A DNA stretch of 64,000 nucleotides from the IMG/VR virus record IMGVR_UViG_3300037088_000888. The stretch is one strand, 5' to 3'. The position numbers were made by a program, and so were the translations under genes. The stretch comes from an uncultured virus (IMG/VR IMGVR_UViG_3300037088_000888). Lineage: Duplodnaviria > Heunggongvirae > Uroviricota > Caudoviricetes. Below, piece after piece: positions 2,450-21,467 of this stretch; position 1 is the first letter of the stretch, and each line of letters starts with the position of its first letter. The notes below the pieces were generated by a model that saw nothing but the letters and a program-made list of their open reading frames with translations, did not search any database and was not told where the DNA came from.

Positions 2450-3465
2450 TATAAATTTTTTAATATCTTCATTATTTTTTCTGCAGCATGTCCATCACCA
2501 AATGGACATTCTACATTTATTTTATAATTATTAATGTGATGTATAAATGCCCCAATTAACATATTTGGTCTTTCAACCATAAAAGTGCTTAATCCAATTG
2601 CTTCTGGACGTTCTGTTACAATTCGGCAAGTTAAACATTTTTTATTGAAAAAGCAAGATTCTTCTTGAAGTCCACCACTATCAGTAATTACAAGTCTGCA
2701 TTGAACCAGTAAATCAAGCATTTTCTCATATGGAAGTGGGTCAATAATCACAACATTCTTTAATAAATGCTTCCATTTTTGTACATTTGGATTAGGATGA
2801 ATTGGTAGAATAAATTCATATTCTGGATATAATTTAGCCAAATTATCTAATTCAATGAACCATTTGTCCATCCAGTGATGATTCTCACGCCTATGTAGAG
2901 TAACTAAAATCTTATTAGTATATTCACATTTATCTTTATAAGATAATAAATTATCGATCACTGTGTTGCCAACCACATAAATATCATCATCAATTCTTTC
3001 ATTCAATAAATTTTGTTTTGCTAATTCTGTCGGACATAAATGAATATCAGCAATTTCTGAAATAATTCTCCTGTTTACTTCTTCAGGATATGGATTTTTT
3101 TTATCATATGTTCTAAGTCCTGCTTCCAGATGAATAACTTTTATACCATGATGATATGCAGATAATGCAATTGCCATTGCTGATGTGGTATCTCCCTGAA
3201 CCATTACATGAGTTATATTATCATAAAACATTTTTGCTCCCGTAAACACGCCCATTATTGATTGAACGATTTCGTCTAATCTATTCTCTTGAATACCCGA
3301 ATTAATGATGCTGGTTACATAATTTGCGGGACATTCTTTTAATAAATCCACATGTTGACCAGTAAATAATGTTTTAAATAAAAAATTATTTTTATTCAAT
3401 TCATTAATTATTGGTTTAGTTTTGACAAACTCAGGACGAGTTCCATATGCAATAAGTAAATTCAT
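2449..3465 (-). CDS. wecB: UDP-N-acetylglucosamine 2-epimerase (non-hydrolysing)
   Basis: GTRPE, TGQH, QGDTTS, HLEAGLRT, PEEVNR, TLHRREN, DSGGLQEE. Confidence 0.92.
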   Translation of the reverse strand: MNLLIAYGTRPEFVKTKPIINELNKNNFLFKTLFTGQHVDLLKECPANYVTSIINSGIQENRLDEIVQSIMGVFTGAKMFYDNITHVMVQGDTTSAMAIALSAYHHGIKVIHLEAGLRTYDKKNPYPEEVNRRIISEIADIHLCPTELAKQNLLNERIDDDIYVVGNTVIDNLLSYKDKCEYTNKILVTLHRRENHHWMDKWFIELDNLAKLYPEYEFILPIHPNPNVQKWKHLLKNVVIIDPLPYEKMLDLLVQCRLVITDSGGLQEESCFFNKKCLTCRIVTERPEAIGLSTFMVERPNMLIGAFIHHINNYKINVECPFGDGHAAEKIMKILKNL

Positions 3466-3914
3466 ATTAATTTGTTTTTATAGTATTCAACGTTATCGCT
3501 ACATATACCAAAAATATTCTTCGGTATTGTAAAGTTCTCGTCTTTTGCAAATTTAAGTAATATTGAACGTTCTGTCAACGATTTTTCAGGATACGTCCAA
3601 ATATATTTATGTGATGTTAATGTACAATTATCATTTTGATGAAAAAAACAATTAATTTCAAAATATTTTAATAATTCATTTAAAGTATAAATATCTTTAG
3701 CATGACACCAAAGAAACACTGAAAATTGCTGTAAAAAAGCTAATGAAATTTTATACTCAAAATTATCGTGTCCCAAATAAAATGAATTATCTTTATACCA
3801 CATATCAATTTCCACATCAAAACCCCCTTCTATTGCTGAAACAATATATTCTAACGTATTTTCTTTTTCAATTTCAACACCATTAATGTTACCTCTATGT
3901 GCAATAAATTTCAT
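3462..3914 (-). CDS. Short glycerophosphodiester phosphodiesterase-like protein
   Basis: IAHRGN...ENT...DVEID...LGHD; ends GICSD. Confidence 0.65.
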   Translation of the reverse strand: MKFIAHRGNINGVEIEKENTLEYIVSAIEGGFDVEIDMWYKDNSFYLGHDNFEYKISLAFLQQFSVFLWCHAKDIYTLNELLKYFEINCFFHQNDNCTLTSHKYIWTYPEKSLTERSILLKFAKDENFTIPKNIFGICSDNVEYYKNKLI

Positions 3915-4639
3915 TATAAATATTTTTTATTTACATAAATTACATCTGCTTCTGTTTGCTGTGGTTCTGGTTTCGATTCAAGTAAGTGAAAATTCTTATT
4001 CAATAATATATCCAATTCTGATTTCATTGTGGCATTTTTATATAATGCCTGAAGTTCAACCTCTGTGGCGATACCATCTACATCATTCAAAAAATGTCCC
4101 ATGCCTTCAAAAACAAGTTTTTCAACACCTTGAACATCTGCCCAAATTAAATCAACTTTATTTATATTATTTTCTTTTAACCAATCTTCCAATCTAACAC
4201 ACTCAATTTCAATTTCTTTTTGTGCCCATCCACTTGAACGTGGGTGACCACTGGTTAATAAAAATGAACTTGCTCCCACGTTACCATTTATTACTTCATA
4301 AAATTTAGATTTTCCATTAAATGAACTAACTGCTTTGGGTATAATTGTAATATTAGGAATGTTTTTTGTTGTGTTTCTACACCATGCAATATTAGATGGT
4401 ACTGGTTCAAACGCATAAATCTTTGTATTTGGAAACCATCTGTTAAACTCTAATGTTTGACATGCATCCCTTGAACCGATATCCAGAATAACTTTAATGT
4501 TATCGAATTTAAGATACTTTGACATATGTGTAATAAATGAATATGTTAATATATTACACACACCATCCCAATTTCTAAAACAACCATGTTTTAATTCATC
4601 AGGAGTAAATGCATTGTTAATGTAATCGAGATTTCCCAT
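3914..4639 (-). CDS. FkbM-family SAM methyltransferase
   Basis: LDIGS, YAFEP, DLIWADVQGVE. Confidence 0.85.
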   Translation of the reverse strand: MGNLDYINNAFTPDELKHGCFRNWDGVCNILTYSFITHMSKYLKFDNIKVILDIGSRDACQTLEFNRWFPNTKIYAFEPVPSNIAWCRNTTKNIPNITIIPKAVSSFNGKSKFYEVINGNVGASSFLLTSGHPRSSGWAQKEIEIECVRLEDWLKENNINKVDLIWADVQGVEKLVFEGMGHFLNDVDGIATEVELQALYKNATMKSELDILLNKNFHLLESKPEPQQTEADVIYVNKKYL

Positions 4640-5815
4640 TTATTTTTTTCCCCATGTTTTAATTGCCAGATAATATTCTTTCCGATATGTTTTATCAATT
4701 GCTTGTCTCATTGCCAAACAACCAGCATATGTACCATTAGGATGCCCGTGTAACGCACCACCAACATTTGCCATATAATCTACCCCAATTTTATTATTAA
4801 TGTACTCAATCAAACCCGGATGCATTCCACAACTAAGTGCAGGGGTAACATTATTCTCGGTCAACACCTTTAATGCTTTTAATAATTCAACTTCATCATT
4901 GTCCATATAACCACCAATCATGCCAGCATGAATTGAATCAACGCCCATGTATGATGCTAATTTACATATCACGTACCAATCAATATGAAAATCGTGTGTT
5001 TTACTTGTTAAAATTTTATCACCACTTTTCTGAAAATGAATAAAAATTGGTAAATCTAAATCTCTAACAGATTTATAAACACCCATTCCAGACCAAAAAT
5101 TAATATGAACTGAATTGCCACCAAGACAATAAACGGTTTTAACCCTGTTCAACACATACATTGGGTCTGAATTAATACATACGGAATATATCACATTTTT
5201 TCCTATTAAATAATTCATTATTTTCGGTACTCTATCAGTTATTTTACAGAATTCTGGATTTCCCAATATTTCATCTTCTTTTATAAAATTTACACCACCA
5301 TCAACCATTTCCTTTACCATATCCAATAATACTCCACTTGATATACCAGTCTTTGGCTTAACAATACCACCAAAAAATGGTTTATTATATGTGTTTGTAT
5401 ATTCTCTAAATCCAGTTAAACCAAACTTAGGTTTCTTAAAATTATTAACAATTGAGTCAGGAAATTCAATATCCAAAACATGACATTTAATTATATCATC
5501 AATGTCTAATTGACCACCCATTATAAAACATAGTAATTGTGAAATACCATCTGTATTCCAATCGATATTTACTTTTGGAAAAGCTATATTTACAATACCT
5601 CTTTTAAGTAATTTTAATTCGGCTTCATCAGCAATTACCAATGCTGAATATTTTTCAAACAATTCATCTGTTTCCCACTTATTTCTAACATTTGGATTAC
5701 CAACACTTTGACCAATAGCTAAACTCCAAGCTGCAGTTCTTAACGATGTCTTTGATTCTAAAAAATATTTAACTATAATATAGTCATTTTTATTTATTTC
5801 CTCTTTAAATATCAT
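4640..5815 (-). CDS. RuBisCO-like protein (form IV/RLP)
   Basis: PKFG, GIVKPKTG (K175/K177 equivalents), GVNFIKEDE (carbamylated Lys/Mg motif), PALSCG, GGALHGHP. Confidence 0.88.
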   Translation of the reverse strand: MIFKEEINKNDYIIVKYFLESKTSLRTAAWSLAIGQSVGNPNVRNKWETDELFEKYSALVIADEAELKLLKRGIVNIAFPKVNIDWNTDGISQLLCFIMGGQLDIDDIIKCHVLDIEFPDSIVNNFKKPKFGLTGFREYTNTYNKPFFGGIVKPKTGISSGVLLDMVKEMVDGGVNFIKEDEILGNPEFCKITDRVPKIMNYLIGKNVIYSVCINSDPMYVLNRVKTVYCLGGNSVHINFWSGMGVYKSVRDLDLPIFIHFQKSGDKILTSKTHDFHIDWYVICKLASYMGVDSIHAGMIGGYMDNDEVELLKALKVLTENNVTPALSCGMHPGLIEYINNKIGVDYMANVGGALHGHPNGTYAGCLAMRQAIDKTYRKEYYLAIKTWGKK

Positions 5816-5820
5816 GTCTT

Positions 5821-6144
5821 TTATTTTACAACATATTTATCATTTTTAAATGAACCGTCTCTGGATATGATAAGTTCACAATCAGTTAAATACTCAGGTT
5901 CAACAATTTCGTTAGGATATATTATGAAAATATCACCAACTTCAAGTAATTCTCCATGTATTTTCATTTGACCACTTATAACATAATTTATCTCAGTTGT
6001 TAACATATGATAATGTTTATCCCATTGCTGACCTTTCTTATATTTATGATAACCAACTTCAAATTTTTCTGTATGAAATGCTGTTGGCATAAAATCACCA
6101 ACAAACCATCCACCCTTCATGTCACTTATTTTGAGTTTTTCCAT
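5821..6144 (-). CDS. Small cupin protein
   Basis: GGWFVGDF, HYH..TTEINYVISG. Confidence 0.7.
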   Translation of the reverse strand: MEKLKISDMKGGWFVGDFMPTAFHTEKFEVGYHKYKKGQQWDKHYHMLTTEINYVISGQMKIHGELLEVGDIFIIYPNEIVEPEYLTDCELIISRDGSFKNDKYVVK

Positions 6145-6878
6145 TGTAAATATTTTTTTAAATCTTCTGGGTCACCGACAGAAAAATGCTGATTTGGTTT
6201 TAATTTATATGTTTTAATTTTATATCCATCATTAATCATTTGATTATATGTCATGGAAACATAAAATTCATTTTTTATTCTAATGTTTTTTAAAATCATT
6301 TTTTCTGCCGATTCTACAAAATATTTTCCCATTTTCCAATAATGTATTCCGTTTAATGGTTGGTCACTTATAATTTCTTTCTCAACCAATCTTATTCCAT
6401 ATCCATTTTCATCCAATTCAATAAAACTTTCAGTAGTTGCAATTTTATTCCATGTTACTACCAAACCATCAACATCTTCTTGATTTATAGCATTCAAAAA
6501 ATCTTGAGAATTCCAATAGGATATTCTATCACAATTTGTAATAATTAATGGTTTGTTATTATTAATTAATTCTTTTGCTAATAATACACTACAAGCAGGA
6601 CCTTCAGTCACATGATTAATTTGAATTATATCACAATCAGGTGTTACTTCAGATAATATATTATTTAATTCAATATTTAATGAATGGTCATCATACTTTC
6701 TTGTAATATATATATAATTTCCGTCAAGTTTTAAACTATTAATAGCATGCCAAACCATTGCTTTGTCATCAATTTTTATGAGTGGTTTTGGTAGATTAAA
6801 TTGACTAAATCTTCCGCCACGACCAGCCATTGGCATTACAATATTTATTTTATTGTTTGTAAACATAACAAATATCAT
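6126..6878 (-). CDS. Sugar-phosphate nucleotidyltransferase
   Basis: PMAGRGGRF..PKPLI, TEGPAC, NCD, EKE, NEFYV. Confidence 0.85.
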   Translation of the reverse strand: MIFVMFTNNKINIVMPMAGRGGRFSQFNLPKPLIKIDDKAMVWHAINSLKLDGNYIYITRKYDDHSLNIELNNILSEVTPDCDIIQINHVTEGPACSVLLAKELINNNKPLIITNCDRISYWNSQDFLNAINQEDVDGLVVTWNKIATTESFIELDENGYGIRLVEKEIISDQPLNGIHYWKMGKYFVESAEKMILKNIRIKNEFYVSMTYNQMINDGYKIKTYKLKPNQHFSVGDPEDLKKYLQWKNSK

Positions 6879-7440
6879 TTTTATATATTGATAATTTAAT
6901 TTGTTTTTTTAACCACAAAACATCATTCACATTATTTAAATTTTTACCAAAAAATTCAATGTTTTTATTTAATTGTTTTTTCCTAATATTATTAGTTAAT
7001 GCAATTTCGGCACACCATACATTAATATTAGTAAAATTCCACATATCGTATATTTTATCGGTTTCCCCTTCCATTATATAATCAACATAATAATCTCCAC
7101 TGTCATGAAAAAAAAACATATTTATTGCATTTAAAAGAAATAATTTAACAAATTCATCGGTATTTGTTGGAATCATATCACTTCTCCATTTCAACACTCT
7201 TTCATATTTTAATTCTTTTGCCTTTAATATGCCATTTAATGTTGTTTTCTGTTGTAACATAACATTTCCAACACCACGTACTGAAGGCATTTCATTAAAT
7301 ACAACAATATCTTCTTTATTATATTTACTTTCATTACCTATCCATGTTGACCATATTAATGAATTTCCTGACCATGCTTTTTTAAGTTCATTAACATAAT
7401 CAGATTGACCCTGTATAACAATTGCACCGCTATAATTCAT
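6850..7440 (-). CDS. WavE-like polysaccharide synthesis protein
   Basis: AIVIQG, IWSTW, QQKTTLNG, LKWRSD. Confidence 0.5.
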   Translation of the reverse strand: MNYSGAIVIQGQSDYVNELKKAWSGNSLIWSTWIGNESKYNKEDIVVFNEMPSVRGVGNVMLQQKTTLNGILKAKELKYERVLKWRSDMIPTNTDEFVKLFLLNAINMFFFHDSGDYYVDYIMEGETDKIYDMWNFTNINVWCAEIALTNNIRKKQLNKNIEFFGKNLNNVNDVLWLKKQIKLSIYKNDICYVYKQ

Positions 7441-8470
7441 TTACTTGTTTATTAATCCAATTATATGTTTTTACTAATCCTGCTTCTAATGGTTGACTTA
7501 CTTCCCAACCAATTTTTTCACGATAAAGTTTATTATCTGAATTTCTGCCACGAACTCCTTCAGGACATTTAAAAGTATATTTATCAATAAATACCTGTCC
7601 TGCAATATTTTTAATCTTAAGATTTTTACCAGAAATATCAATTGTCATTTGAGCTAATTGATTAATGCTCACCATTTCTTCTGAACCAATATTAAGTGGT
7701 TCAATACAATCACTTGCCATTAATCTTTGAATAGCCTCAAGACATTCATCAACATATAGAAATGAACGGGTTTGTTGACCATCGCCCCAAACTTCAATTT
7801 CATGTGAGATCAGATCATTAGTGTGTTCTGCAACCTTTCTACACATTGCTGCAGGTGCTTTCTCTTTACCACCACGCCAAGTACCAAATGTGCCAAATAT
7901 GTTGTGAAACCTTGCTATTCTCACATTTAAACCATAGTTTCTGTGATAAGATAAATATAATCTTTCACTAAATAGTTTTTCCCAGCCATATTCACTATCA
8001 GGTGCTGCGGGATATGCTGAAGATTCTGCACAATTTGGATTATTTGGGGTAAGTTGATTATATGCTGGGTACATGCATGCCGAAGAAGAATAAAAAAGTT
8101 TTTTTACTCCTTTTTTAACTGCTTCGTGTACTACGTTTAAGTTAATTAATGTCGAATTGTGCATAACATCAGCATCATGTTCTCCAGTAAAAATATATCC
8201 CGCACCACCCATGTCTGCTGCAAGTTGATATACTTCATCAAATGCATTTTCGTCACCATTTACACTTTGTTTCGGAGCAAACATTACTCTTGAAACCAGC
8301 ATTGGGTCACGAAGATCACCAAGAATAAATTCATCAGAAATTTCTTCGTGAGAAAAGTATTCGTGATTTTTTATGTCAACAATTCTTACCCAATTACCTT
8401 CTGATTTTAAACGTTTTCCAAGATGACCACCGATAAAGCCACCGCCACCTAAAATTAATATTCTTTTCAT
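7430..8470 (-). CDS. NAD-dependent epimerase, GDP-mannose 3,5-epimerase-like
   Basis: GGGGFIG, LAADMGGAG, SSACMYP, YGWEK, EKAPAAMCRK, GVRGRNSDN. Confidence 0.85.
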   Translation of the reverse strand: MKRILILGGGGFIGGHLGKRLKSEGNWVRIVDIKNHEYFSHEEISDEFILGDLRDPMLVSRVMFAPKQSVNGDENAFDEVYQLAADMGGAGYIFTGEHDADVMHNSTLINLNVVHEAVKKGVKKLFYSSSACMYPAYNQLTPNNPNCAESSAYPAAPDSEYGWEKLFSERLYLSYHRNYGLNVRIARFHNIFGTFGTWRGGKEKAPAAMCRKVAEHTNDLISHEIEVWGDGQQTRSFLYVDECLEAIQRLMASDCIEPLNIGSEEMVSINQLAQMTIDISGKNLKIKNIAGQVFIDKYTFKCPEGVRGRNSDNKLYREKIGWEVSQPLEAGLVKTYNWINKQVNEL

Positions 8471-9396
8471 ATTTTAAATTGTTTTTTATAAATATTATAA
8501 AACTTTAACGTTTTTGCGGGTAATAATTGTTCAAAATTATTTAAATTTTTAATCAACGTCAAGGTATTTCTGTAACCAATTATCTCATTTTCCAAATTAG
8601 TTATCAAATCTTGGATATTTCTTTTTTGATAAACCGATGCTTTATTATATATTACTGAATTTGGAAAATAATGTTGTAATATATATGAACCCCAAATATC
8701 GTCCATTCTGCCAATGTATGGAAATACTGCATAATACGGAATTACTTCTCTTGACAAAAAAGTATTTTGTGAATTAAACGGTGCTATTCTGTCCGAACAA
8801 TATGGTGCAGTAATATTAGAGTATTTTACAATTGGTTTAAATGATAGTCTTGCAAGAGCATCAATATCTGGGTCACCATCCCACAAATCTGCTTGAACCA
8901 ATACCTTTCTTTTTGTTTTACCACGATATTCAACCATATGACGTTCTTGAAGATATTCAATTGGAAATCCTCTATGCCAAATGTAATTATCTTTAGTTAT
9001 TGATAAAGGATCGAAAACATCTAACTTTGGATGATATAAATCAACTTCAATTTCTTGATTAACAAAAATTTCATTTCCCCACGAATCATATGGAATATTA
9101 TCGTCATCAGATGATGCAATAATTTCAGCACCCAAATTATATGCTTCGAGAAATCCAATATTTCTGCGCTGAGAACAATTCCAGCCAATGGCTTCACTTA
9201 ATTCTTTATATTCATTTTTTTGATATTCTGGCGTTAAATATTTAACATTTGAAAATTGTTTTTCAAGTTTATAATATTCTTCATGTGGTGTTTTTAAATC
9301 ACCCACTATTATAAAAAACCAATCTCTTTTTTCACAAAATTTAAATATTGCTTCACTTGGTTTGTTGATTGTTGTTATTATTATATATTTTTTCAT
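8467..9396 (-). CDS. STELLO/DUF288-like glycosyltransferase-related protein
   Basis: IITTIN, VGDLKTP, RRNIGFL, DDDN, WHRGFP, GDPDIDA, FNSQNT, RMDDIW. Confidence 0.65.
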   Translation of the reverse strand: MKKYIIITTINKPSEAIFKFCEKRDWFFIIVGDLKTPHEEYYKLEKQFSNVKYLTPEYQKNEYKELSEAIGWNCSQRRNIGFLEAYNLGAEIIASSDDDNIPYDSWGNEIFVNQEIEVDLYHPKLDVFDPLSITKDNYIWHRGFPIEYLQERHMVEYRGKTKRKVLVQADLWDGDPDIDALARLSFKPIVKYSNITAPYCSDRIAPFNSQNTFLSREVIPYYAVFPYIGRMDDIWGSYILQHYFPNSVIYNKASVYQKRNIQDLITNLENEIIGYRNTLTLIKNLNNFEQLLPAKTLKFYNIYKKQFKI

Positions 9397-9411
9397 ATTT
9401 GAGATTTTTAA

Positions 9412-9813
9412 TTACCAACTTATTTCCCAATCTTTAAAATTGACAGCAAGACAATCGATTTTATAATCTTTTCTTCCGCCAACAATTTCCTGTACTTTAT
9501 TTTTTGCCACATTTCTAATACCATTCAATCCATGTGTTAATTCAAGATTATTGCCATCTTTAATTCCTTTTCTATAATTAGATTCATTATGCCAAATATG
9601 TAGATTCATTTGTGCTAACACAATAATTGCTCTAATAGTTTCAGCATTTATTTTGTTGTTTGATTCTTCAAGTATAAGATTAATGTCACTAACAATATCT
9701 TTAATTTCTTGTGCATATTCTTCTTTATGTTCTGGAATAAACACTTCTTTTAATTGTACTATTGATAATCTATCAATTAATTCCGCTAATGTGGGTAAAT
9801 ATTTTCTATCCAT
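9412..9813 (-). CDS. Helical hypothetical protein (DUF4254-like)
   Basis: LAELIDRLSIVQLK, NLHIWHNE; in operon. Confidence 0.45.
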   Translation of the reverse strand: MDRKYLPTLAELIDRLSIVQLKEVFIPEHKEEYAQEIKDIVSDINLILEESNNKINAETIRAIIVLAQMNLHIWHNESNYRKGIKDGNNLELTHGLNGIRNVAKNKVQEIVGGRKDYKIDCLAVNFKDWEISW

Positions 9814-9814
9814 C

Positions 9815-10417
9815 TTATCTATTTTTTATTAAATTTTTATATTCATTAAAAGAAATTAATTGTAATAATTCATTTCTATTTTCATTAAAATAATTCCAAG
9901 AAATATTATCAATATTATCAATGTTATAATCCAATGATCTATTTTCAAGTATTTTTCTTCTTGTTAAAATTCCACATCCGAAATCTTCATCAATAACAAA
10001 ACAGCACCAATCTTTTAATTCTTGTTTTAATCGTATAATAGTTTTAAAAACCATTCCATTATCTGATTCCAAATTTAAATGCGCTTCATCTGGGGGATTA
10101 CAGTCGTGCATTACAATAAATCCATCTTCTGAAATATGTTTAGTTGAATTAATTGCATCTCTATATGACTGTTCATATGTATGTAAACCATCAATAAAAA
10201 TTATGTCGTATTTTTGTTCTCCAACATGATTTTTAAAAAATTCATCGCTCGTCATATTATATGTATATTTTCCATTCGGATTTGGGTCAACGCCATACTT
10301 AAATGCCGCATTAATTATATTATAATTATCATTCGGGTTTCTTACTCCAATCTCAAGATAAGTTTTAAAATTATAATTTAAAAAAAGCATGTTAATTATA
10401 TCAGTTCTTAATATCAT
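9815..10417 (-). CDS. Class I SAM methyltransferase
   Basis: YLEIGV, GVDP, DIIFIDGLH, VMHD. Confidence 0.8.
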   Translation of the reverse strand: MILRTDIINMLFLNYNFKTYLEIGVRNPNDNYNIINAAFKYGVDPNPNGKYTYNMTSDEFFKNHVGEQKYDIIFIDGLHTYEQSYRDAINSTKHISEDGFIVMHDCNPPDEAHLNLESDNGMVFKTIIRLKQELKDWCCFVIDEDFGCGILTRRKILENRSLDYNIDNIDNISWNYFNENRNELLQLISFNEYKNLIKNR

Positions 10418-11385
10418 ATTCTTCTTTTTATGTCATCATAAATTATTTTTAATCCGTCCATCAACGATGTTTTTGCTTTCCATCCATATATTTTTTCAGC
10501 TAAATTACAACTACACCATTGACTCCAGATTTTAGTTTCTTTTGTTTTATCATATTCAATTATAATATTTTTATTGGATATTTTAATGATATTTTCAGCA
10601 ATTTCAGCAATTGTATTACGTTCTTCTTTTCCAACATTTACTTTTACTAATCGCATGTTATCTAAACCATCAATCATTAATTCCATACAATCTAATGCAT
10701 CATCAATAAAACAATATGATCTGATTTCTGTACCGTCACCAAAAACATTAAAGGGAATTTCTGGATATTTTATTGCTTTATGTGAAAATACCGGAATTAC
10801 TGACCCCGTTTCTAACTGATAATCTTGATTTGTTCCATATATTCCAATAAATCTTGCAATTGCTGCATTAAAATTTGGATATTCCTCACATGCATATTCT
10901 ATTTGTTTTTCACCAATTAATTTTGCCCAACCATACGACAATTCACAATCAACAGGATATGCATCTTCTTCAAACATTTTTGGTGAATCTTTAAACATTT
11001 GTAATTGCTTGGGGTAAATGTGTGCACTGGAAGCATAAAAATACTTATTTATATTATTTTTTAGTGTTGCTTTTAGAACATTAGAATCAATTATTATATT
11101 ATTTGATATTATATTATATGGTTTTGATAAATATACACCAATTCCCCCGACTTTAGATGCTAAATGTACTACAACATCAATATTTTTGAAATATGGCTCA
11201 ATTAAATTATAATCACGCAAATCTAAATTTAAAAATGTTATGTTATCCAAGACATCACTAATGTTTTCAATATTACCTCTTTCGAGATTATCAATCACAA
11301 TTACATGATATCCTTTATTTATTAATCTTTTGATTAAGTGTGACCCGATAAAACCAACACCGCCAGTAATTAAAATTTTTTTCAT
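10414..11385 (-). CDS. NAD-dependent sugar epimerase/dehydratase
   Basis: TGGVGFIG, ASSA, YGWAK; likely start MKKILITGG at 11385. Confidence 0.85.
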   Translation of the reverse strand: MKKILITGGVGFIGSHLIKRLINKGYHVIVIDNLERGNIENISDVLDNITFLNLDLRDYNLIEPYFKNIDVVVHLASKVGGIGVYLSKPYNIISNNIIIDSNVLKATLKNNINKYFYASSAHIYPKQLQMFKDSPKMFEEDAYPVDCELSYGWAKLIGEKQIEYACEEYPNFNAAIARFIGIYGTNQDYQLETGSVIPVFSHKAIKYPEIPFNVFGDGTEIRSYCFIDDALDCMELMIDGLDNMRLVKVNVGKEERNTIAEIAENIIKISNKNIIIEYDKTKETKIWSQWCSCNLAEKIYGWKAKTSLMDGLKIIYDDIKRRI

Positions 11386-11390
11386 AAACA

Positions 11391-12329
11391 TTATTTTTTT
11401 TGTAAATACCAATCAATTGTTTTTTTTATACCTTCTTTTACAGAAGTATTTGGTACGTAACCGATTGCTTTTTCAAATCTACTCATATCATAAAACCTTC
11501 TAGGTTGTCCATCAGATTTACTTGAATCCCATACGATTTTACCATCGTAATTTGTTAATTCTGCAATTATTTCAACTAATTCTTTTATTGTTGTTTCAAC
11601 CCCCGTTCCCAGATTAAGAAAATCTCTATCATTATATTTTTCTGCAACATCTAAAATTGCTTTTACCGTATCACGAACATATAAAAATTCTCTTGATGCC
11701 ATACCTGTTCCCCAAACAGTAACAATTTTTTCATTATTTTCTTTTGCTTCTAAAATTTTTCTTATAAGCGCAGGAACAACATGTGATGTATCCAAATTAA
11801 AATTATCATATTTGCCATATAGATTAGCGGGTAAAAGAACTGATGAATTAAATCCATATTGGTCTCTATACGCCCATGATTGAATTATCAAATTTTTCTT
11901 AGCTAATGAATAACCATACGAATTTTCATCAGGAAATCCCATCCAAAAATCTTCTTCCTTATATGGTGTTTCCAATAACTTAGGATAACCACATCCTGCA
12001 GCCAAAGAAACCAATTTTTCGACTCCATTAATAAATGAATAATGTGTTACTAACGTGTCCATCATAATATTTTCATAAAAAAATTCTGCAGGTTTTGCTT
12101 TATTAATACCAATTCCCCCCACCCTTCCAGCTAAATGAATAACAATATTTGGTTTATTTTCATTGAAATATTTTTTAACTTCTTCTTCTATAGTTAAATC
12201 ACACTCCTTTTTATTTGGCGTTAAAACATTATTAATGCCTCTTTTAATTAATTCATTTATTAAATTAGTCCCAACAAATCCGTGTGCACCAGTGACCAAT
12301 ACTTTCTTGTTTTCCCAAAATTTTTTCAT
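11391..12329 (-). CDS. fcl: GDP-L-fucose synthase-like epimerase-reductase
   Basis: HLAGRVGGI, YSLAK, NLYG.YDNF...SHVVPALIRK, WGTG.ASREF. Confidence 0.85.
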   Translation of the reverse strand: MKKFWENKKVLVTGAHGFVGTNLINELIKRGINNVLTPNKKECDLTIEEEVKKYFNENKPNIVIHLAGRVGGIGINKAKPAEFFYENIMMDTLVTHYSFINGVEKLVSLAAGCGYPKLLETPYKEEDFWMGFPDENSYGYSLAKKNLIIQSWAYRDQYGFNSSVLLPANLYGKYDNFNLDTSHVVPALIRKILEAKENNEKIVTVWGTGMASREFLYVRDTVKAILDVAEKYNDRDFLNLGTGVETTIKELVEIIAELTNYDGKIVWDSSKSDGQPRRFYDMSRFEKAIGYVPNTSVKEGIKKTIDWYLQKK

Positions 12330-12333
12330 TGTT

Positions 12334-13275
12334 TTATAGATTTGTAAAATTCTTATTTTTATGCTTTACTATCATTTTATATGCTTTAATTAATTCGCAT
12401 ATTCCATCTTCAATTGAATTAGTTGCTTTCCAACCATAACTCTCCAACTTCTCATTTGAAACAACATAATTACGCTTATCCATATCTTGTTTAAATTCAG
12501 TTTCAACAACCACCAATTCGGGAATAAATTTTTTAATTCGATCAACTAATTCTTTTTTTGATATGTTTGCATTTGATAATCCAACATTAAAAACTGCATT
12601 ATTCATTTTCTCATAATTTTCAATACAAAATAAAAATGTATTTGCAATGTCTCTTACATGAATATAATTCCTTATAAAATTAGACTCGAATAGAACCAAA
12701 AAACCATCAGTTACTGCTCTATATACAAAATCATTAACCAATAAATCAGTTCTCATTCTTGGCGAAGCACCAAAAGCAGTTGCCAATCTTAAACAAATAC
12801 CATTACTACTATTTAAAATATATTTTTCAGCATCGCATTTAGTTATAGCATAATGTGATAATGGGTTAAATGGGCTTTCTTCAGTAATTATGGTATTTGA
12901 ACTACCATATTGACTATTTGTGTTTGGCATAATTAACCGCTGACTTTTATTTAAAACATTAACAATTGATTTAATTTGATTAAAATTAATTTCTGTTGCT
13001 AAACTTTTATTAACATCACATGCAGGAGCACCTACGATAGCAGCCAATGGAATTATTACATCGAAACTATTAATAAACTCTTTGTTATTAACGTAATGCA
13101 TTACGTTATCATCAATCAATGAAAAATTTTTATTATTACAAACATGCAGTAATGATATTTGATTATAAAGTAAATTGTCAATAACTGTTACATTATAGTC
13201 TTTCGATAATAATAATTCAGTTAAAACTGAACCAATATATCCCGCACCACCCGTAATTAATACTTTTGTTTTCAT
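12334..13275 (-). CDS. NAD-dependent sugar epimerase/dehydratase
   Basis: TGGAGYIG, LAAIVGAPAC, YAITK, RLATAFGASPRMR. Confidence 0.85.
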   Translation of the reverse strand: MKTKVLITGGAGYIGSVLTELLLSKDYNVTVIDNLLYNQISLLHVCNNKNFSLIDDNVMHYVNNKEFINSFDVIIPLAAIVGAPACDVNKSLATEINFNQIKSIVNVLNKSQRLIMPNTNSQYGSSNTIITEESPFNPLSHYAITKCDAEKYILNSSNGICLRLATAFGASPRMRTDLLVNDFVYRAVTDGFLVLFESNFIRNYIHVRDIANTFLFCIENYEKMNNAVFNVGLSNANISKKELVDRIKKFIPELVVVETEFKQDMDKRNYVVSNEKLESYGWKATNSIEDGICELIKAYKMIVKHKNKNFTNL

Positions 13276-14154
13276 AAAATATATTTATTATAAAAATGTT
13301 TTGTTGTATAATTATTTATTGCTCTATTATAAGCATTATCTGCAATTATTTTATACTTATCATAATTACTTAGAATTTCATTAATAATTTCTTTCAGATT
13401 ACTATCATCAAAATATATAAATTCTTTCTTCACATCAAAAATATCTTCAATGATGTTAAATTCATCAGATTTACACAAAATAATACTTCGGCAAAATGCT
13501 GCTTCAATAACTCTACTCTTATGCTGAGTCAATTTATTATTTCTAATTTCTAATATATCATTTATATTGCTAAAATTTTTTAAAAAATTAAGTGCATCCC
13601 CATTTAAAACATATTCGTTGGTACATATTGATATTTTTGACATTGATATTAAATTAAGTTTTTCAACATATGATACAAAGCCACGTGTTGCTTTAGGATT
13701 TACTTTACCAATAAGAACATTTTTTTTATTATCCCATTGAATTTTATTTAAATATTCGAAAGGAGCATTTCCAACATAAATAACATCAATTGTTTTTTTG
13801 TTTTCCGGCAAAATATATTGTTCTGAAAATGGATGAAATACATATATATAATTCATTATTTAAAATTCTATTTCGTTTTTGTACAAGATATGGACATATT
13901 GAAAATATTTTATTAAACCTCTTTTCGTCAAAAAATCCAATTTCTCTCGTATTATAATTTATAAATACATTTGGAGTTTCGGTATTTAAATGATAATGTA
14001 TTAAGCCATCAACAAAAAATTTATTTTCTTCTACACCACCATATGATAAATGCAGGCAAACATTTTTTGTTCTCTCATCATTTAATGCAAACAAAAAATC
14101 TAATTTATGTATTGGGTCTTCTGAAAAAGTACGTGAATTATAAAATGTTTTCAT
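13272..14154 (-). pseudogene. CgeB-like glycosyltransferase apparently split by a frameshift in an (AT)n tract (ORFs 13786-14154 and 13272-13856)
   Basis: The two ORFs overlap by 71 nt. One extra AT at 13842-13850 fuses them (...NNELYIYVFHPF...). C-terminal half has KSRVIEAA and a GT-B tail. Confidence 0.55.
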
Positions 14155-14978
14155 TAACCAATTTCTATTAATTTTTTCGATATTATATTTTTAGGATAAT
14201 TAATAAATCCCCAATTTGGTTTATTCACATATCCGTTTGTATTATAAATACCATCGGTATGAACACCAATTTTACTATGATTAATATGCCAATAATCTGC
14301 TTGTAGAAACATTAATGTAATTCCTTTATGATGTAAATTCCAAAGAATTTCACCATCCATACCAGTTTGTGAAGTAACCCGATGTCCCATATTTGTTTCA
14401 TCATACCCATCACCAGATTCAATAAAAAAATTTTTATTTATAATTAAAATATCACCAGAGCAATAACCGCAAATAATAGCATCTGGATTATTCGGATAAT
14501 GAATACATTCCCTTTTTAATATATTTAAATTAATATCTATTTGAACTCTATTTATTAATCTATAAAAATGCTTCTCATCATGTTTCTCATGAAATAAATT
14601 AATTATTTCTCTCATTGTTTCTGGTGGTATGATAATATCTGAATTAAGTAATATTAATACCTCATATTTACTTATTCTGACACCAACATTTTTTGCAAAA
14701 TATTCAAAAAATTTATTTGAATTAAGATTTTCACTTACTGCAACATTTGATTTAACAACAACATCAATTAAATTTTTATTTAAAAATAATTGTCGAAATT
14801 TTTCATTATTAATTAGATAATTTTTTATTGGACTCCATTCAACAACCAAATATTCATACTCAACATTAAATCGTTCTAATATTTCAATATTTTTTGACAG
14901 TGATATGTATAATCTATCTAAAAAATTACCGCCACCGCCATAATCATCATCTCTGCCTGTAGTTATAAAACTTATCAT
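14154..14978 (-). CDS. GT-A fold glycosyltransferase-like protein
   Basis: GRDDDYG, AKNVGVR, LNSDII, SGD, GYDE. Confidence 0.6.
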   Translation of the reverse strand: MISFITTGRDDDYGGGGNFLDRLYISLSKNIEILERFNVEYEYLVVEWSPIKNYLINNEKFRQLFLNKNLIDVVVKSNVAVSENLNSNKFFEYFAKNVGVRISKYEVLILLNSDIIIPPETMREIINLFHEKHDEKHFYRLINRVQIDINLNILKRECIHYPNNPDAIICGYCSGDILIINKNFFIESGDGYDETNMGHRVTSQTGMDGEILWNLHHKGITLMFLQADYWHINHSKIGVHTDGIYNTNGYVNKPNWGFINYPKNIISKKLIEIG

Positions 14979-15742
14979 TTTAGTAAATATTTAGCGTCAA
15001 ATATACATTGTTTTTTCTCTGAAAAATGGTGGTTAACAATATTATATGTTTGAATTACATTATATTTATATTTATAAAATATCCAATTTTTTGCTGTTTG
15101 TTCTGCACAATGCCACGAATGTACCTTTAAATCAGAAACATCAATAATATCAACAGCAGCCATTTTATGATAAACTTGGTCTAAATCATTTACTTGAAAC
15201 ATTAGTGGCATTCCCAAAAGACCAACATTATATATGGGATAATCAATATTACCCACTGTATTGATCGATGACATAATTTCACCCATTTTAGGATTTCCCT
15301 GCATTAATTTTCTTTCATATTTCCAAACCAAAACATCTTTACTGTCATTATTCATTGTTGGAATTGCATTGAAAAAAGTTAAATCACAATCAATTTTAAT
15401 TGTGTATTCAGTTTTGCTTCTCGCAAAAAGAATAAAATTGTGTAAAATGTCAAAACTATATTTTAAATTGCCAGCATATTTGTTTAATTCTTCACTATAG
15501 TCATAATAAATAATATTATTTGTGTTTATATTGTATTTTGATATTTTTTCTTTCATCAACTCAACATCATCAGTATATAAATGAAGCATTAAACTTGGAT
15601 TTTTATCAATAAATGTCGCATATGATGCTGCCGAATATTCAGAAATAAATTCTTTGTTAACATATATATCTTTTGCCCAAAATCTTCCAATTTCAAACAA
15701 TTTAATCATATCATATGCAAAACTTAATGTTATTACTTTCAT
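14975..15742 (-). CDS. Putative glycosyltransferase
   Basis: LYTDD, KIDCD (DxD), YNVG, EQ; operon context. Confidence 0.45.
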   Translation of the reverse strand: MKVITLSFAYDMIKLFEIGRFWAKDIYVNKEFISEYSAASYATFIDKNPSLMLHLYTDDVELMKEKISKYNINTNNIIYYDYSEELNKYAGNLKYSFDILHNFILFARSKTEYTIKIDCDLTFFNAIPTMNNDSKDVLVWKYERKLMQGNPKMGEIMSSINTVGNIDYPIYNVGLLGMPLMFQVNDLDQVYHKMAAVDIIDVSDLKVHSWHCAEQTAKNWIFYKYKYNVIQTYNIVNHHFSEKKQCIFDAKYLLK

Positions 15743-16415
15743 TTTTAATATATTTTCTCAACACTCTATTTGTATATTCCACATTGTTAATTTTAACAAT
15801 TGCTTCATTTACAATGTCACTGTTTTTAGTGTTCCAATTATTATTTTCGACATCGTTTGTAATTTTTAAAATTGGTTTTTTATTTAAAATATTACCAATT
15901 AAGTTACATAATATAATTACATTTAATTTTTCAATACCAGAAAAGTTTAATATTTCATGATTAATTTTATTTTTACAATAATTGACAACCATTACTAAGT
16001 CTTCAATATCTATCAATGCTCTTTCAACATCATTATACACAATAATTTCCAAATCATTATTTATAGAATGTTTTAAAAAATTTACTAAATTGTTTGAATT
16101 ACCACGGTTACCAATTATTTGTGGAAGTCTAAAAATAATATAGTTAGCTGCGTAAGTTTTTATTAATTCTTCAATTTCTAATTTTGCAGTGTAATATTTA
16201 TTTTTTGAAATTTCAACTAATATACTACTAAAATAAATTAGTTTTAATCTTTTATATTTATTAATTATTTCTAATATTATTTTTTTTTCACGATCAAACT
16301 CATTTTTGTTAATTTCTTTTGAATTTGAAACGCCAGATGCAAATATAAGATAATCCACATAATCTTCACTATGTAAATTAAATTCAGATGCTATCATTCC
16401 ATTTCCTACTATCAT
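15711..16415 (-). CDS. Short NAD-dependent epimerase-like protein
   Basis: MIVGNGMIA, FASGVSNS, YFSS, YYTAK; likely start at 16415. Confidence 0.65.
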   Translation of the reverse strand: MIVGNGMIASEFNLHSEDYVDYLIFASGVSNSKEINKNEFDREKKIILEIINKYKRLKLIYFSSILVEISKNKYYTAKLEIEELIKTYAANYIIFRLPQIIGNRGNSNNLVNFLKHSINNDLEIIVYNDVERALIDIEDLVMVVNYCKNKINHEILNFSGIEKLNVIILCNLIGNILNKKPILKITNDVENNNWNTKNSDIVNEAIVKINNVEYTNRVLRKYIKNESNNIKFCI

Positions 16416-16416
16416 T

Positions 16417-17034
16417 TTATTTTCTAATAAAAAATCCATCACCCCAAGATATACCAGCCCAATTTTGTTCAACTAATTGAAACCCCAACGATGATAAAAA
16501 TTCAACTAATTTATTAATTTCAACACAATTTATATATTCTAATGGTTTCTCAGGAATGTTTCTATTAATTTCACTCATAATATAATCCATGTGTTCCAAT
16601 GTTTTAACAGAACCTTTTAACACCTCTAATTCATATCCTTGAACATCAATATTCATGAAATTATAATCGTTAAAATCAAATTCAATATCGTCAAGACGTT
16701 TCATTTGAACAATTTCACCATAATTAAATTTTACATTTTTATAATTATCGCTTGGTTTTAATAAAGATGAACACCCATATGCGTCTGCTTCTTCAACATA
16801 CATTTCAATTTCTTTATTTTCATTACCTAAAGCATAATTAAATAAATTAGCATTATTACCAACCCTTTCTTTTAATTTTTTAAATGTTTTACCAACTGGT
16901 TCAAAATACGATATTTTATTAATATTTAATAACTTATATATATTTTGCTCTTCTCCAAAATGTGCACCAATATGAATAACACCATGAATTTTCATATTAT
17001 ATTTTCTATGTAATTCGTTTAAATTTAATATCAT
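16417..17034 (-). CDS. FkbM-family methyltransferase
   Basis: HIGAHFGEE, FEP, NIDVQGYELEVLKG. Confidence 0.88.
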   Translation of the reverse strand: MILNLNELHRKYNMKIHGVIHIGAHFGEEQNIYKLLNINKISYFEPVGKTFKKLKERVGNNANLFNYALGNENKEIEMYVEEADAYGCSSLLKPSDNYKNVKFNYGEIVQMKRLDDIEFDFNDYNFMNIDVQGYELEVLKGSVKTLEHMDYIMSEINRNIPEKPLEYINCVEINKLVEFLSSLGFQLVEQNWAGISWGDGFFIRK

Positions 17035-17732
17035 AATTTTCCTCTTTTATTAACATCTATCTTATATTCAGCAAACAATTTATTTAATTGTATGCCATAT
17101 TCTCTCATATTCCATTTACCACCACCAATTGCTGTTGCAATATATGGATATACATTACTATCATAATGAGCACTACCACGTTTGTTTTCATCATCATAAT
17201 GATAAGCACCCTTCATATTAAGTCCAATCATTCTATTACGATAATCACCATCAGTTTCCAGCCATCCTTTACTTTTTACAGTGTTCATTAATAATATATT
17301 ATCTGAAGTTCTCCAGATAGTTGCTTGCATTGAAAAAATGTTCGGATTTGTACTTTCAATTTCATATAACGTTGAAGAAATTTTTTTATTATTAAGATTT
17401 CCAGACTTTAATAATCTTACAAATGAATATTTAGAATTATTCTTCAAGAATTCAACATATTCATCGATTTTATTTTGATTAACATCTGCATATAATACAA
17501 AATCTTCCTGTAAATAAATAAAAAAATCCTTACCAAACATCTGTGCTGCTTCTACCCAAACCTTATAGTATGGCTCATCATTAGTATACTTCAAAAAATT
17601 ATTATGATAATTCTCTGGAAGTTTGTCTGAAATAAAATACAAAGGCATTTTACAATGCTTCTCATTTTGTTTAATAAACATTTCCCATAAATCTGAGCAG
17701 TTCGAATTTGTATATACTATTTGATTGATCAT
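17031..17732 (-). CDS. Putative glycosyltransferase
   Basis: YLQEDF, FSMQATIW, GGKW; operon context. Confidence 0.45.
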   Translation of the reverse strand: MINQIVYTNSNCSDLWEMFIKQNEKHCKMPLYFISDKLPENYHNNFLKYTNDEPYYKVWVEAAQMFGKDFFIYLQEDFVLYADVNQNKIDEYVEFLKNNSKYSFVRLLKSGNLNNKKISSTLYEIESTNPNIFSMQATIWRTSDNILLMNTVKSKGWLETDGDYRNRMIGLNMKGAYHYDDENKRGSAHYDSNVYPYIATAIGGGKWNMREYGIQLNKLFAEYKIDVNKRGKL

Positions 17733-17733
17733 A

Positions 17734-18462: not shown

Positions 18463-18463
18463 T

Positions 18464-20823: not shown

Positions 20824-20826
20824 ATA

Positions 20827-21456
20827 TTATAAATTATGTTTTATTCTAATAATATTATATGCGTCTACTTGTGAATTATTTTTTGATGTTTGTCCATCAT
20901 CATTAAAAAATGCCAGAAATTTTATATTGGGTACAAAAATACCAGTTTTGCCCTGCTCTAACATACTTAACCACATTGACCAATCCTGAAATCTCTTTAA
21001 TGTTTCATCAAAACCAATAAAAGCTATTTTTTTAATTAATGCCATTGTACTAATATAATTATATTGTCTAAGCACGCTTGCATTAAAAATCTGACTTTCT
21101 ATAACAAAATTATAATTAGGTTCAACATTAGGATTCATTGCTATGCCATAATAGCCTGTGTAGGCATAATCAGCATTACTGTTTTCAAGGGTAGTAAGAA
21201 GCATTTTAAGAAAACCTTGTGGCATAACGCAATCATCATCCCAAAACATAAGATACTTCTGTGTAGCTTTCTCTGCACCTATATTACGCTGATGCGGTGC
21301 TGACCCTTCATTCATGACCTTAATAATTTCTATTGGTTCGTTATTTTCAATCATTGGTAATACGTGTGCTTCCAAAAATGCTTTACGTTTTAACATTGTT
21401 GGTACTATTACGCTTATGGGTAAACCTTCATCAACTTTATCTACTTTTATTGACAT
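20827..21456 (-). CDS. Family 2 glycosyltransferase
   Basis: ISVIVPT, RNIGA, FWDDD, GFDE, QDW. Confidence 0.82.
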   Translation of the reverse strand: MSIKVDKVDEGLPISVIVPTMLKRKAFLEAHVLPMIENNEPIEIIKVMNEGSAPHQRNIGAEKATQKYLMFWDDDCVMPQGFLKMLLTTLENSNADYAYTGYYGIAMNPNVEPNYNFVIESQIFNASVLRQYNYISTMALIKKIAFIGFDETLKRFQDWSMWLSMLEQGKTGIFVPNIKFLAFFNDDGQTSKNNSQVDAYNIIRIKHNL

Positions 21457-21467
21457 GATTAATATAT

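Follow-up and report, generated by a model that had tools for sequence, protein, structure and literature searches.

The gene module

The DNA analysed here, 64,000 nucleotides of an uncultured virus (IMG/VR record IMGVR_UViG_3300037088_000888; Caudoviricetes), is called the window below. Its subject of interest is a gene for a RuBisCO-like protein (RLP) and the four genes packed around it. Open reading frame (ORF) calls and translations gave five tightly packed ORFs at 3462-6878 on the minus strand, transcribed in the order nucleotidyltransferase (NTPtr), cupin, RLP, FkbM methyltransferase and GDPD-like protein (Table 1). The NTPtr and cupin genes overlap by 19 nt, cupin and RLP are separated by 5 nt, RLP and FkbM abut (0 nt), and FkbM and the GDPD-like gene overlap by 1 nt; the latter overlaps the next gene, encoding a UDP-GlcNAc 2-epimerase, by 4 nt. 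The RLP gene is intact. A sequence-only reading of the window, made earlier from the letters and translations, had described a nucleotidyltransferase/cupin/RLP/methyltransferase/phosphodiesterase module at these positions, which was confirmed by the ORFs, Pfam matches and motifs.

Active site of the RLP

The RLP matched PF00016 with 109.4 bits (E 2.7e-31; cut-off 30.1) and PF02788 with 22.2 bits (cut-off 20.7), and was aligned with PDB 2oej over residues 13-376. With both Pfam domains over their gathering scores it is a member of the RuBisCO large-subunit superfamily and has its fold. A site table was prepared from 72 clade members aligned with one form I large subunit and five other RLPs from annotated plasmids, and the mapping of sites was cross-checked by HMMER alignments to PDB 8dht and 2oej. 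Roles were assigned to positions according to textbook RuBisCO enzymology, in which the carboxylation set of a bona fide RuBisCO comprises E60, N123, T173, H294 and K334 plus K175, K201, D203 and E204.

The translation contains the motifs GGIVKPKTG, NFIKEDE, IHFQKSG, MIGGYM and AIGQSVGNP. KPK and KEDE, noted by eye as kept, are present in the first two. The other assignments made by eye in the sequence-only reading were reproduced by the alignment, which gave Q262/K263 at H294/R295, Y303 at K334 and G35 at the missing E60. Further replacements in the window RLP are N40 for T65, G101 for N123, I151 for T173 and D266 for H298.

The same pattern was found throughout the clade. K175, K177, K201, D203, E204, S379, G381 and G403 are kept in 72/72 members, G404 in 70 and H327 in 66. 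Six positions are replaced identically in all 72 (E60 by G, T65 by N, N123 by G, T173 by I, H294 by Q, K334 by Y). Position 295 is K in 61, R in 5 and S in 6 members, and H298 is D in 58/72. Among the five other RLPs, H294 is kept in 5/5, position 334 is K in four and R in one, and K177 is lost in all. Since these references keep H294 and a basic residue at 334 and lose K177, the retention of KPK together with the loss of H294 and K334 is specific to the clade.

Judged by alignment, the RLP has therefore retained both its enolisation core and the cradle for the P1 phosphate, and carboxylation residues are lost. The residues of a bona fide RuBisCO (forms I-III) are absent at five positions (G35, G101, I151, Q262 and Y303), in all 72 members. 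As the earlier reading had predicted, carboxylation of ribulose 1,5-bisphosphate (RuBP) is not to be expected, because these residues are lost throughout.

Family placement and distribution

All NCBIfam scores of the RLP were below cut-off. The best match was form III (TIGR03326, 162.8 bits vs 497.45); the RuBisCO model NF003252 gave 152.6 vs 438, followed by MtnW (TIGR03332, 127.3 vs 513.6; NF007095, 146.9 vs 409) and OiaX (NF042437, 123.1 vs 700). The best PDB match was 2oej, the MtnW of Geobacillus (E 9.9e-34, residues 13-376). The solved structures are approximately equidistant from the RLP, with 120 bits for MtnW, 116 bits for a form III enzyme and about 100-110 bits for other RLPs; PDB 2qyg, an RLP2 (E 2.2e-16), was weaker than MtnW or form III.

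MtnW (also YkrW; Bacillus and Geobacillus, PDB 2oej and 2oek) is a non-carboxylating 2,3-diketo-5-methylthiopentyl-1-phosphate enolase that acts on a ketose-derived 1-phosphate. The window RLP shares with it the fold over residues 13-376, the K201/D203/E204 metal site and the glycine P1 cradle. It differs in keeping KPK where 2oej has K-G-M, in its glycan context in place of mtn genes, and at Lys98, which we take to be the general-base lysine of 2oej and which aligns to Q102 (Q in 63, H in 8 and N in 1 of the 72 members). Neither MtnA, MtnB, MtnK, MtnX nor MtnD families were detected among 51 window ORFs or 149 neighbour proteins of 19 related loci. By scores, base lysine and gene association the RLP is thus no member of form IV-YkrW, in agreement with the earlier reading, for which the RLP stood outside the methionine-salvage group.

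A quick maximum-likelihood tree was calculated from 78 sequences. Of these, 72 were locus RLPs; the others were four plasmid RLPs of OiaX type, one of which is annotated as OiaX, an RLP from Thiodictyon and a form I sequence as outgroup. The locus RLPs form one clade (SH-aLRT 100), with the five RLP references outside. Viral and cellular rows are interleaved, and no fewer than 7 to 8 changes of label are needed, a sign of repeated transfer. The sub-clade of the window RLP includes a protein from a Beckwithbacteria metagenome-assembled genome (MAG; locus L023, 54% identical) and a Patescibacteria protein, with branch supports of 97-100. Phages, Beckwithbacteria, Patescibacteria, DPANN, SAR11 and Legionella are represented in the clade.

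Searching a big protein collection gave 2564 matches at E ≤ 0.001; the best 120 were 64-100% identical, many of them on long contigs. Beyond the window's own locus (L001), 13 further RLP loci were found in IMG/VR, and 49 RLP loci on contigs from one genome per species. Cellular carriers include a complete Candidatus Pelagibacter genome, many SAR11 single cells, three Legionella species, a Tatlockia MAG, Azospirillum oleiclasticum, Verrucomicrobia, Patescibacteria, Beckwithbacteria, and Woese-, Nano- and Micrarchaeota. No RLP relatives were found in GenBank phages by tblastn, and no nucleotide matches to window positions 1-20000. The nearest record (G001) is without RLP, and control genomes gave zero loci.

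A clade of this kind has been described. Jaffe, Castelle, Dupont and Banfield (2019, Mol Biol Evol; PMC6389311) reported about 80 divergent phage 'form IV-like' sequences, some from Myoviridae and many in IMG/VR, the function of which was left open in the accessible part of that report. Common to their clade and ours, as far as the accessible part goes, are the divergent phage-borne RLP, the myovirus-type contigs, the loss of several catalytic residues and the grouping with the Candidate Phyla Radiation (CPR); different is that neither fusions nor an association with genes for a nucleotidyltransferase, a cupin or a GDPD-like protein are mentioned there. The window RLP, on a myovirus-like contig, clusters with IMG/VR and Beckwithbacteria sequences apart from the RLP references and is counted with the phage/Beckwithbacteria 'form IV-like' group. 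The two clades are most likely the same, as judged from the shared Beckwithbacteria and IMG/VR membership and not from the published sequences. The divergent phage RLP clade is already in print, so its existence is not new.

Partner proteins

The NTPtr was below the cut-off of PF12804 (23.7 bits; cut-off 27) and as a single sequence was aligned end to end with PDB 4evw (E 6.7e-5). A profile of 14 homologues raised this end-to-end match to 2.4e-31 and further matched mannose-1-phosphate guanylyltransferases (1e-10 to 3e-13) and RmlA (5e-9, positions 2-174). GlmU and HddC were also matched over about 170 positions, IspD and LicC over the first 60 or so only. Some NTPtr homologues gave weak Pfam matches to IspD or NTP_transf_3. 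By profile comparison the NTPtr is closest to sugar-1-phosphate nucleotidyltransferases.

The cupin scored 17.2 bits with PF07883, below cut-off. Its metal motif H44-x-H46-x4-E51 was compared in 21 homologues, in which H44 and E51 are invariant and H46 nearly so. The nearest folds to its AlphaFold model (pLDDT 96.2) were the minimal phosphomannose isomerases (PMI) of Thermococcus (7zvm, 7zvy; E 6e-6, TM 0.63, 26% identity); the CapF cupin domain and KdgF came next. The cupin is probably an isomerase or epimerase of a sugar phosphate or of a nucleoside diphosphate (NDP) sugar.

No match in Pfam or NCBIfam was obtained for the 150-aa ORF, which had been labelled a phosphodiesterase. This label has weaker support than the others. 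It is sustained in part by the motifs HRG, EN, ExD and GHD of the catalytic His/Arg/Glu/Asp/His set of glycerophosphodiester phosphodiesterases (GDPD), conserved in 21/21 aligned homologues, among which H6, R7, G8, N9, N19, E35, D37, H49, D50, H71 and K73 are invariant. A weak sequence match to a GDPD was found in PDB (E 0.073), and the top Foldseek matches of the AlphaFold model (pLDDT 96.1) were GDPDs, weakly (best E 6.8e-3, probability 0.97, TM approximately 0.5). In a Woesearchaeota locus (L031), a full-length PF03009 GDPD stands in place of the 150-aa protein.

The FkbM ORF matched PF05050 (61.1 bits) and TIGR01444 (81.6 bits, over cut-off). FkbM genes adjoin the cassette repeatedly (L003, L004/L011, L005, L031, L083); the methyltransferase probably O-methylates a sugar or glycan.

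Conserved neighbours and natural fusions

Neighbours of the RLP were counted with clean profiles from curated alignments in 60 loci (13 viral, 47 cellular), the self locus being left out. An NTPtr was present within 5 kb of the RLP in 58/60 loci (13/13 viral, 45/47 cellular; 40/41 of those with flanks of at least 3 kb), and at a distance of at most 300 nt in 35/60. The two loci without it are L015 and the 3.1-kb contig L035. A GDPD-like gene was found within 5 kb in 35/60 loci (23/41 with such flanks; 5/13 viral, 30/47 cellular), and anywhere in the locus in 7/13 viral ones. The cupin was found within 5 kb in 25/60 (19/41; 10/13 viral, 15/47 cellular).

Natural fusions were searched for among longer proteins. 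Two of these (P0121, 813 aa; P0122, 817 aa) consist of RLP (1-391), NTPtr (398-637) and cupin (711-812). A third RLP fusion (P0123, 724 aa) has a 339-aa C-terminal part that matches no recognisable family. The association with NTP-transferase, cupin and GDPD, which the sequence-only reading had put forward for testing, is kept in homologues in the proportions given, and the linkage to glycan genes is conserved, as seen from the NTPtr count and the RLP-NTPtr-cupin fusions.

Two or more NTPtr domains lie within 5 kb of the RLP in 20/60 loci. Such loci were noted on SAR11 single-cell or MAG contigs (L034, L038-L041, L043, L044, L046) and in DPANN (L030-L032, L036, L037, L045, L047, L049, L063). 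Most of them are without cupin, and in the SAR11 loci two paralogous NTPtr copies flank the RLP, one on each side.

Mutases and kinases are scarce in the RLP loci: HAD_2 in 3/13 viral and 1/47 cellular loci, PMM in 3/13 and 0/47, and GHMP kinase in 3/13 and 0/47.

The wider cassette and its variants

IMG/VR was scanned for NTPtr genes with a seven-sequence alignment, giving at least 584 related stretches; figures were taken from the best 80 loci. Among these best 80 of at least 584, a beta-phosphoglucomutase (beta-PGM)-like HAD was present in 69, a GDPD-like gene in 56, a cupin in 15 and an RLP in 11. In the 69 loci the HAD is mostly fused to the N-terminus of the NTPtr. It comes closest to the beta-PGM family and to sugar phosphatases, without reaching any cut-off. 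This HAD occurs in 3/11 loci with RLP vs 66/69 without it (same best 80), and the RLP seems to be an interchangeable addition to a cassette of wider occurrence. The window module, with NTPtr, GDPD-like gene and cupin, falls under the 4EVW-type cassette (NTPtr and GDPD-like gene plus HAD and/or cupin); the beta-PGM-like HAD is absent from it. Cassettes without RLP (two NTPtr, GDPD-like, HAD, cupin) were found in cyanophages, S-CAM9 among them, and on plasmids of Pseudomonas and Rhizobium.

In two rare variants of the cassette, genes for enzymes of ribulose phosphates take the place of the RLP gene. In Synechococcus phage S-SKS1 (NC_020851.1; L064:6001-7428), a 475-aa protein is a fusion of NTPtr (1-252) and DHBP synthase (PF00926, 218.9 bits, 259-447). 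The substrate of DHBP synthase is ribulose 5-phosphate and the product a 1-deoxy-ketose 4-phosphate. The fusion gene is followed by a 118-aa HAD annotated 'phosphoheptose isomerase' and then by a transaldolase. On an E. coli IncR plasmid (NZ_CP145712.1; L154:523-9485), tandem NTPtr genes lie with GtrA, GT2 and GDPD-like genes in a serotype-conversion-like cassette. This cassette encodes a 660-aa protein with a phosphoribulokinase (PRK)-like domain (NF005655, 205.5 bits; cut-off 236), a HAD with ribulose-1,5-bisphosphate 5-phosphatase as best match (NF053830, 168 bits; cut-off 330), a class II aldolase-family protein and a 586-aa unassigned protein. The NF053830 phosphatase presumably belongs to the haloarchaeal non-carboxylating pentose bisphosphate route. 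That route shares with the plasmid cassette the RuBP 5-phosphatase-like HAD, the PRK-like kinase and the class II aldolase, here beside an NTPtr; it differs in being catabolic, the plasmid proteins score below the curated cut-offs, and the window is without any such gene. The plasmid set suggests ribulose 1-phosphate or RuBP as entry metabolite. Taken together with the known ligands of the family (RuBP, ketose 1-phosphates), the two variants suggest, on thin evidence, that a ribulose phosphate enters the pathway.

The NTPtr was also aligned end to end with a 247-aa 'capsular biosynthesis protein' (24% identity, pairwise E 6e-15). The latter is the nucleotidyltransferase of a trio on an E. coli ST131 plasmid (NZ_CP103510.1; L152:3991-6741), together with a 131-aa HAD and a 536-aa APH-like kinase. 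The trio is located in a plasmid-borne group-2-like capsule region and adjoins a gene of the CDP-glycerol glycerophosphotransferase family and Capsule_synth genes. When E. coli genomes were searched at the DNA level with this trio, no named kfo/K4 locus was reached. In the type B capsule of Pasteurella multocida, the fructose side chain depends on bcbE and bcbG, two of the genes bcbE/F/G, according to the accessible part of Smallman et al. (2026; PMC13552107). A link of the window cassette to the bcb genes and so to a ketose (fructose) is a lead, not a result.

Proposed function and alternatives

For the RLP we propose, with about an even chance of being right, a working enzyme that enolises but does not carboxylate, an isomerase or epimerase supplying the NTPtr of a nucleotide-sugar cassette with a rare sugar phosphate. 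The proposal is made because the core and the phosphate cradle are kept, the residues for CO2 addition and cleavage are lost, and in two natural proteins the RLP is fused to the NTPtr and a PMI-like cupin. What we infer beyond these observations is that the reaction proceeds by enolisation, in which order the steps follow, and to what class the substrate belongs. The leading guess for the substrate is a ketopentose phosphate, e.g., ribulose 1-phosphate, ribulose 5-phosphate or ribulose 1,5-bisphosphate.

In this scheme, the ketose phosphate would be held by its phosphate in the P1 cradle (S379, G381, G403, G404), and its carbonyl would coordinate Mg2+ on carbamylated K201, D203 and E204. The proton next to the carbonyl would be abstracted as in the first partial reaction of RuBisCO. 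Because the CO2-adding and adduct-cleaving residues E60, N123, T173, H294 and K334 are gone, the enediolate would be reprotonated, yielding an epimerised or carbonyl-shifted ketose phosphate. A second isomerisation might be carried out by the adjacent PMI-like cupin, and the nucleotide would be attached by the 4EVW-type nucleotidyltransferase. The FkbM methyltransferase, the GDPD-like enzyme and the glycosyltransferases of the surrounding glycan island might then finish the residue and attach it to a glycan belonging to the virion or to the infected cell.

A wider proposal, which we regard as speculative and rather improbable as it stands, extends this to the whole clade. Its members would be entry enzymes of an undescribed anabolic route, in which a ribulose phosphate (1-phosphate, 5-phosphate or RuBP) is epimerised or rearranged through the first partial reaction of RuBisCO and passed to a dedicated nucleotidyltransferase, giving a nucleotide-activated ketopentose (e.g., xylulose) or another rare ketose donor for surface-glycan side branches in phages, SAR11, Legionella, CPR and DPANN. 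No published function or cassette link was found for the RLP clade in the searchable literature, subscription journals and bioRxiv supplements being outside its reach.

Several points weigh against the enolising isomerase or epimerase. K or R at 295 and H at 327 leave room for a second anionic group on the substrate. The related loci are phylogenetically non-independent, and many of them lack the cupin or the GDPD-like gene, as the counts given above show. Most loci are without mutase or anomeric kinase, and the source of a glycosyl 1-phosphate is therefore unexplained. A LicD-family phosphotransferase lies beside RLP and NTPtr in 4/47 cellular loci, all from Legionellaceae, and such neighbours would suit a donor of the CDP-alcohol type more than a glycosyl one. 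Each of the two ribulose-centred variants was seen once: of DHBP synthase, PRK-like domain, RuBP-phosphatase-like HAD and class II aldolase, none occurred in 142 other loci (0/142) or in the best 80 NTPtr loci (0/80). MtnW or DeepYkrW references were not among the taxa of the tree. Finally, the sequence does not reveal the substrate, and every function proposed for the clade is a prediction.

A first alternative is considered unlikely. A CDP-activated ketol or polyol phosphate would be made and installed as a phosphodiester decoration rather than as a glycosyl residue. RLP and cupin would shift the carbonyl of a ketose 1-phosphate, e.g., 5-deoxy- or 5-methylthio-ribulose 1-phosphate from by-products of S-adenosylmethionine (SAM), to give a deoxy-ketose omega-phosphate, and the NTPtr would link its primary phosphate to CMP. 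The two would work in the manner of the RLP and cupin that are reportedly paired in Rhodospirillum rubrum, the 5-methylthioribulose-1-phosphate isomerase of which is the DeepYkrW RLP. Besides the LicD neighbours, the scarcity of mutases and kinases, the phosphodiesterase-like gene in 35/60 loci, the S-SKS1 fusion to an enzyme that forms a 1-deoxy-ketose 4-phosphate, the weak IspD or NTP_transf_3 matches of some NTPtr homologues and radical-SAM genes nearby in L007, L010, L031 and L057 are in its favour. Against it, the NTPtr profile spans about 170 positions of sugar-1-phosphate transferases and only the N-terminal 60 or so of IspD/LicC, LicD is confined to one lineage, and no LicD, methylthioadenosine (MTA) or 5-deoxyadenosine salvage genes were present among the scanned window ORFs.

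Slightly less probable again is an RLP acting after activation, in which the NTPtr makes the NDP-sugar first and the RLP, with the cupin, epimerises or isomerises the nucleotide-bound sugar. The position of the NTPtr between RLP and cupin in the natural fusions fits this order, and cupins such as the CapF domain, a structural neighbour, act on NDP-ketosugars. The replacement of the P1-closing N-domain residues T65, W66 and E60 and of the loop-6 K334 could open the site to a larger phosphate ester; the glycine-rich P1 cradle is unchanged, however, and there is no consistently linked NDP-sugar 4,6-dehydratase. The characterised members of the RuBisCO family are, as far as known, all active on free sugar or ketoacid phosphates (see the accessible part of Sekowska 2018).

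A carboxylase or (de)carboxylase, either form III-like in nucleotide salvage or OiaX/OiaC-like in acid-sugar catabolism, is very improbable. Form III gave the best NCBIfam match, and an adenine phosphoribosyltransferase gene adjoins the RLP in L007, L008 and L010. These points are opposed by the replacement of all five carboxylation residues in 72/72 members and by form III and OiaX scores far below cut-off. The OiaX-type references, OiaX itself and the three plasmid RLPs like it, group in a clade of their own, and a four-carbon acid sugar kinase gene follows 4/6 reference genes (L146, L149, L150, L151) and is absent from the window. By score, clade and adjacent kinase, the RLP is no member of the OiaX/OiaC type (form IV-NonPhoto).

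The least credible reading is that of an MtnW, i.e., the methionine-salvage enolase as an auxiliary metabolic gene, for although the closest solved relative by sequence is 2oej, form III scores are about equal or higher, so the RLP is about equidistant from both, and cut-offs, base lysine and the absence of mtn genes from the scanned window ORFs and neighbour proteins speak against it. A methionine-salvage paralogue cassette (RLP as MtnW, HAD as MtnC, cupin as MtnD, class II aldolase as MtnB) was also considered and is not supported, since the HAD is beta-PGM-like and not MtnC-like and an MtnB-like gene was found in one plasmid only; the analogy had been attractive in the light of the accessible part of Sekowska 2018.

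Significance

RLPs are a classic example of how a single fold acquires new reactions. To our knowledge, all functions assigned to them are catabolic or serve salvage; those known are in methionine salvage, in the MTA-isoprenoid shunt and in the catabolism of apiose. With a large clade tied to a sugar-activating enzyme in glycan islands, the RuBisCO fold would, if the proposed enolising isomerase is correct, have its first anabolic, glycan-building role. Should the wider, improbable proposal also hold, RuBisCO 'misfire' chemistry would have been recruited for biosynthesis, supplying a donor for ketofuranose residues in capsules and O-antigens. The clade could show how unusual sugars, possibly ketoses, become activated, which is relevant to the fructose branches of E. 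coli K4 and Pasteurella capsules. The module adds to the evidence that large myoviruses carry complete surface-glycan remodelling pathways.

The sequence-only reading had seen in the RLP a possible supplier of an unusual (branched or keto) sugar phosphate for NDP activation, which would be a new reaction for the fold. This interpretation was supported in part, by the residues, the non-MtnW scores and the glycan linkage; the divergent phage RLP clade is not new (PMC6389311). The proposed function would, if true, provide a role for the phage RLPs that was left open by Jaffe et al. 2019, as far as the accessible part goes. Added here are the 72-member site table, the inverse relation of RLP and HAD, the NTPtr profile test, the LicD neighbours, the two ribulose-centred variants and the lead from the Pasteurella study of 2026.

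Genomic surroundings

The module is part of one minus-strand gene train running from about 22193 down to 1, which represents a 22-kb glycan island (Table 1). Genes upstream of the module would use or further modify the activated sugar. Between two GT2 genes of the island lies a LAGLIDADG_3 ORF, probably a free-standing homing endonuclease.

Table 1. Positions of features in the window and the basis of their assignment.
Feature	Position	Strand	Basis or content
HldD-like epimerase, truncated by window end	1-576	-	Pfam; NCBIfam below cut-off
HldE domain II-like adenylyltransferase	573-1007	-	Pfam; NCBIfam below cut-off
HAD-like ORF, 96 aa	1004-1294	-	TIGR01689 30.3 bits vs cut-off 162; 2.2 kb downstream of module
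Cupin, 137 aa	1288-1701	-	Pfam
HldE domain I-like PfkB kinase	1667-2449	-	Pfam; NCBIfam below cut-off
UDP-GlcNAc 2-epimerase	2449-3465	-	Pfam
Miniature GDPD-like protein, 150 aa	3462..3914	-	Catalytic-residue conservation; weak fold match
FkbM-family SAM methyltransferase, 241 aa	3914..4639	-	PF05050, TIGR01444
RuBisCO-like protein (RLP), 391 aa	4640..5815	-	PF00016 and PF02788; PDB 2oej; site table; tree
Small metal cupin, 107 aa	5821..6144	-	H44-x-H46-x4-E51 motif; model fold
Nucleotidyltransferase (NTPtr), 250 aa, 4EVW-type	6126..6878	-	PF12804 below cut-off; PDB 4evw alignment
Rest of glycan island	7430..22193	-	Four SDR epimerase/dehydratases, methyltransferases, GT2, GT-like and GT25-type glycosyltransferases, unassigned ORFs (Pfam)
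LAGLIDADG_3 ORF, 302 aa	19915-20823	-	37.6 bits
T4 baseplate domain	29003-29917		
Tail sheath, 924 aa	40442-43216		Matches sheaths in 2673 phage records
Second DUF7487 protein	43612-45474		
568-aa protein	57948-59654	+	DUF7487, REase_MTES_1575 and Mom-like domain
TnpB/IS605 OrfB-type gene	61406-62581	+	PF01385, PF07282, HTH domain

Downstream of the module, an ADP-heptose-like set at 1-2449 was matched by TIGR02198 (128 bits), TIGR02199 (99 bits) and TIGR02197 (196 bits), all below cut-off. It is without a SIS-type GmhA isomerase, and the 137-aa cupin may replace this missing enzyme. Neither the window's heptose genes nor its UDP-GlcNAc 2-epimerase gene accompany the RLP in the 13 other viral loci.

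Adjoining the glycan train are a tail sheath gene and a baseplate gene of T4 type, together with two ORFs of very large size. The T4 baseplate domain and the sheath protein support the phage label of the earlier reading, and the window is regarded, on these predicted genes, as a myovirus-like phage. Its G+C content is approximately 29%. The public runs containing the stretch are labelled peat metagenomes; no RNA datasets were among the public runs listed for it. An identity as pelagimyophage was considered and dropped, since the nearest cellular RLPs are not those of SAR11 and the DNA is from peat metagenome runs. The accessible part of a pelagimyophage paper (PMC7029224) describes glycan genes in host-recognition clusters and does not mention RuBisCO.

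Elsewhere in the window, a TnpB/IS605 OrfB-type gene was noted, as was a 568-aa protein combining DUF7487 with restriction endonuclease-type (REase_MTES_1575) and Mom-like domains; a second DUF7487 protein is encoded at 43612-45474.

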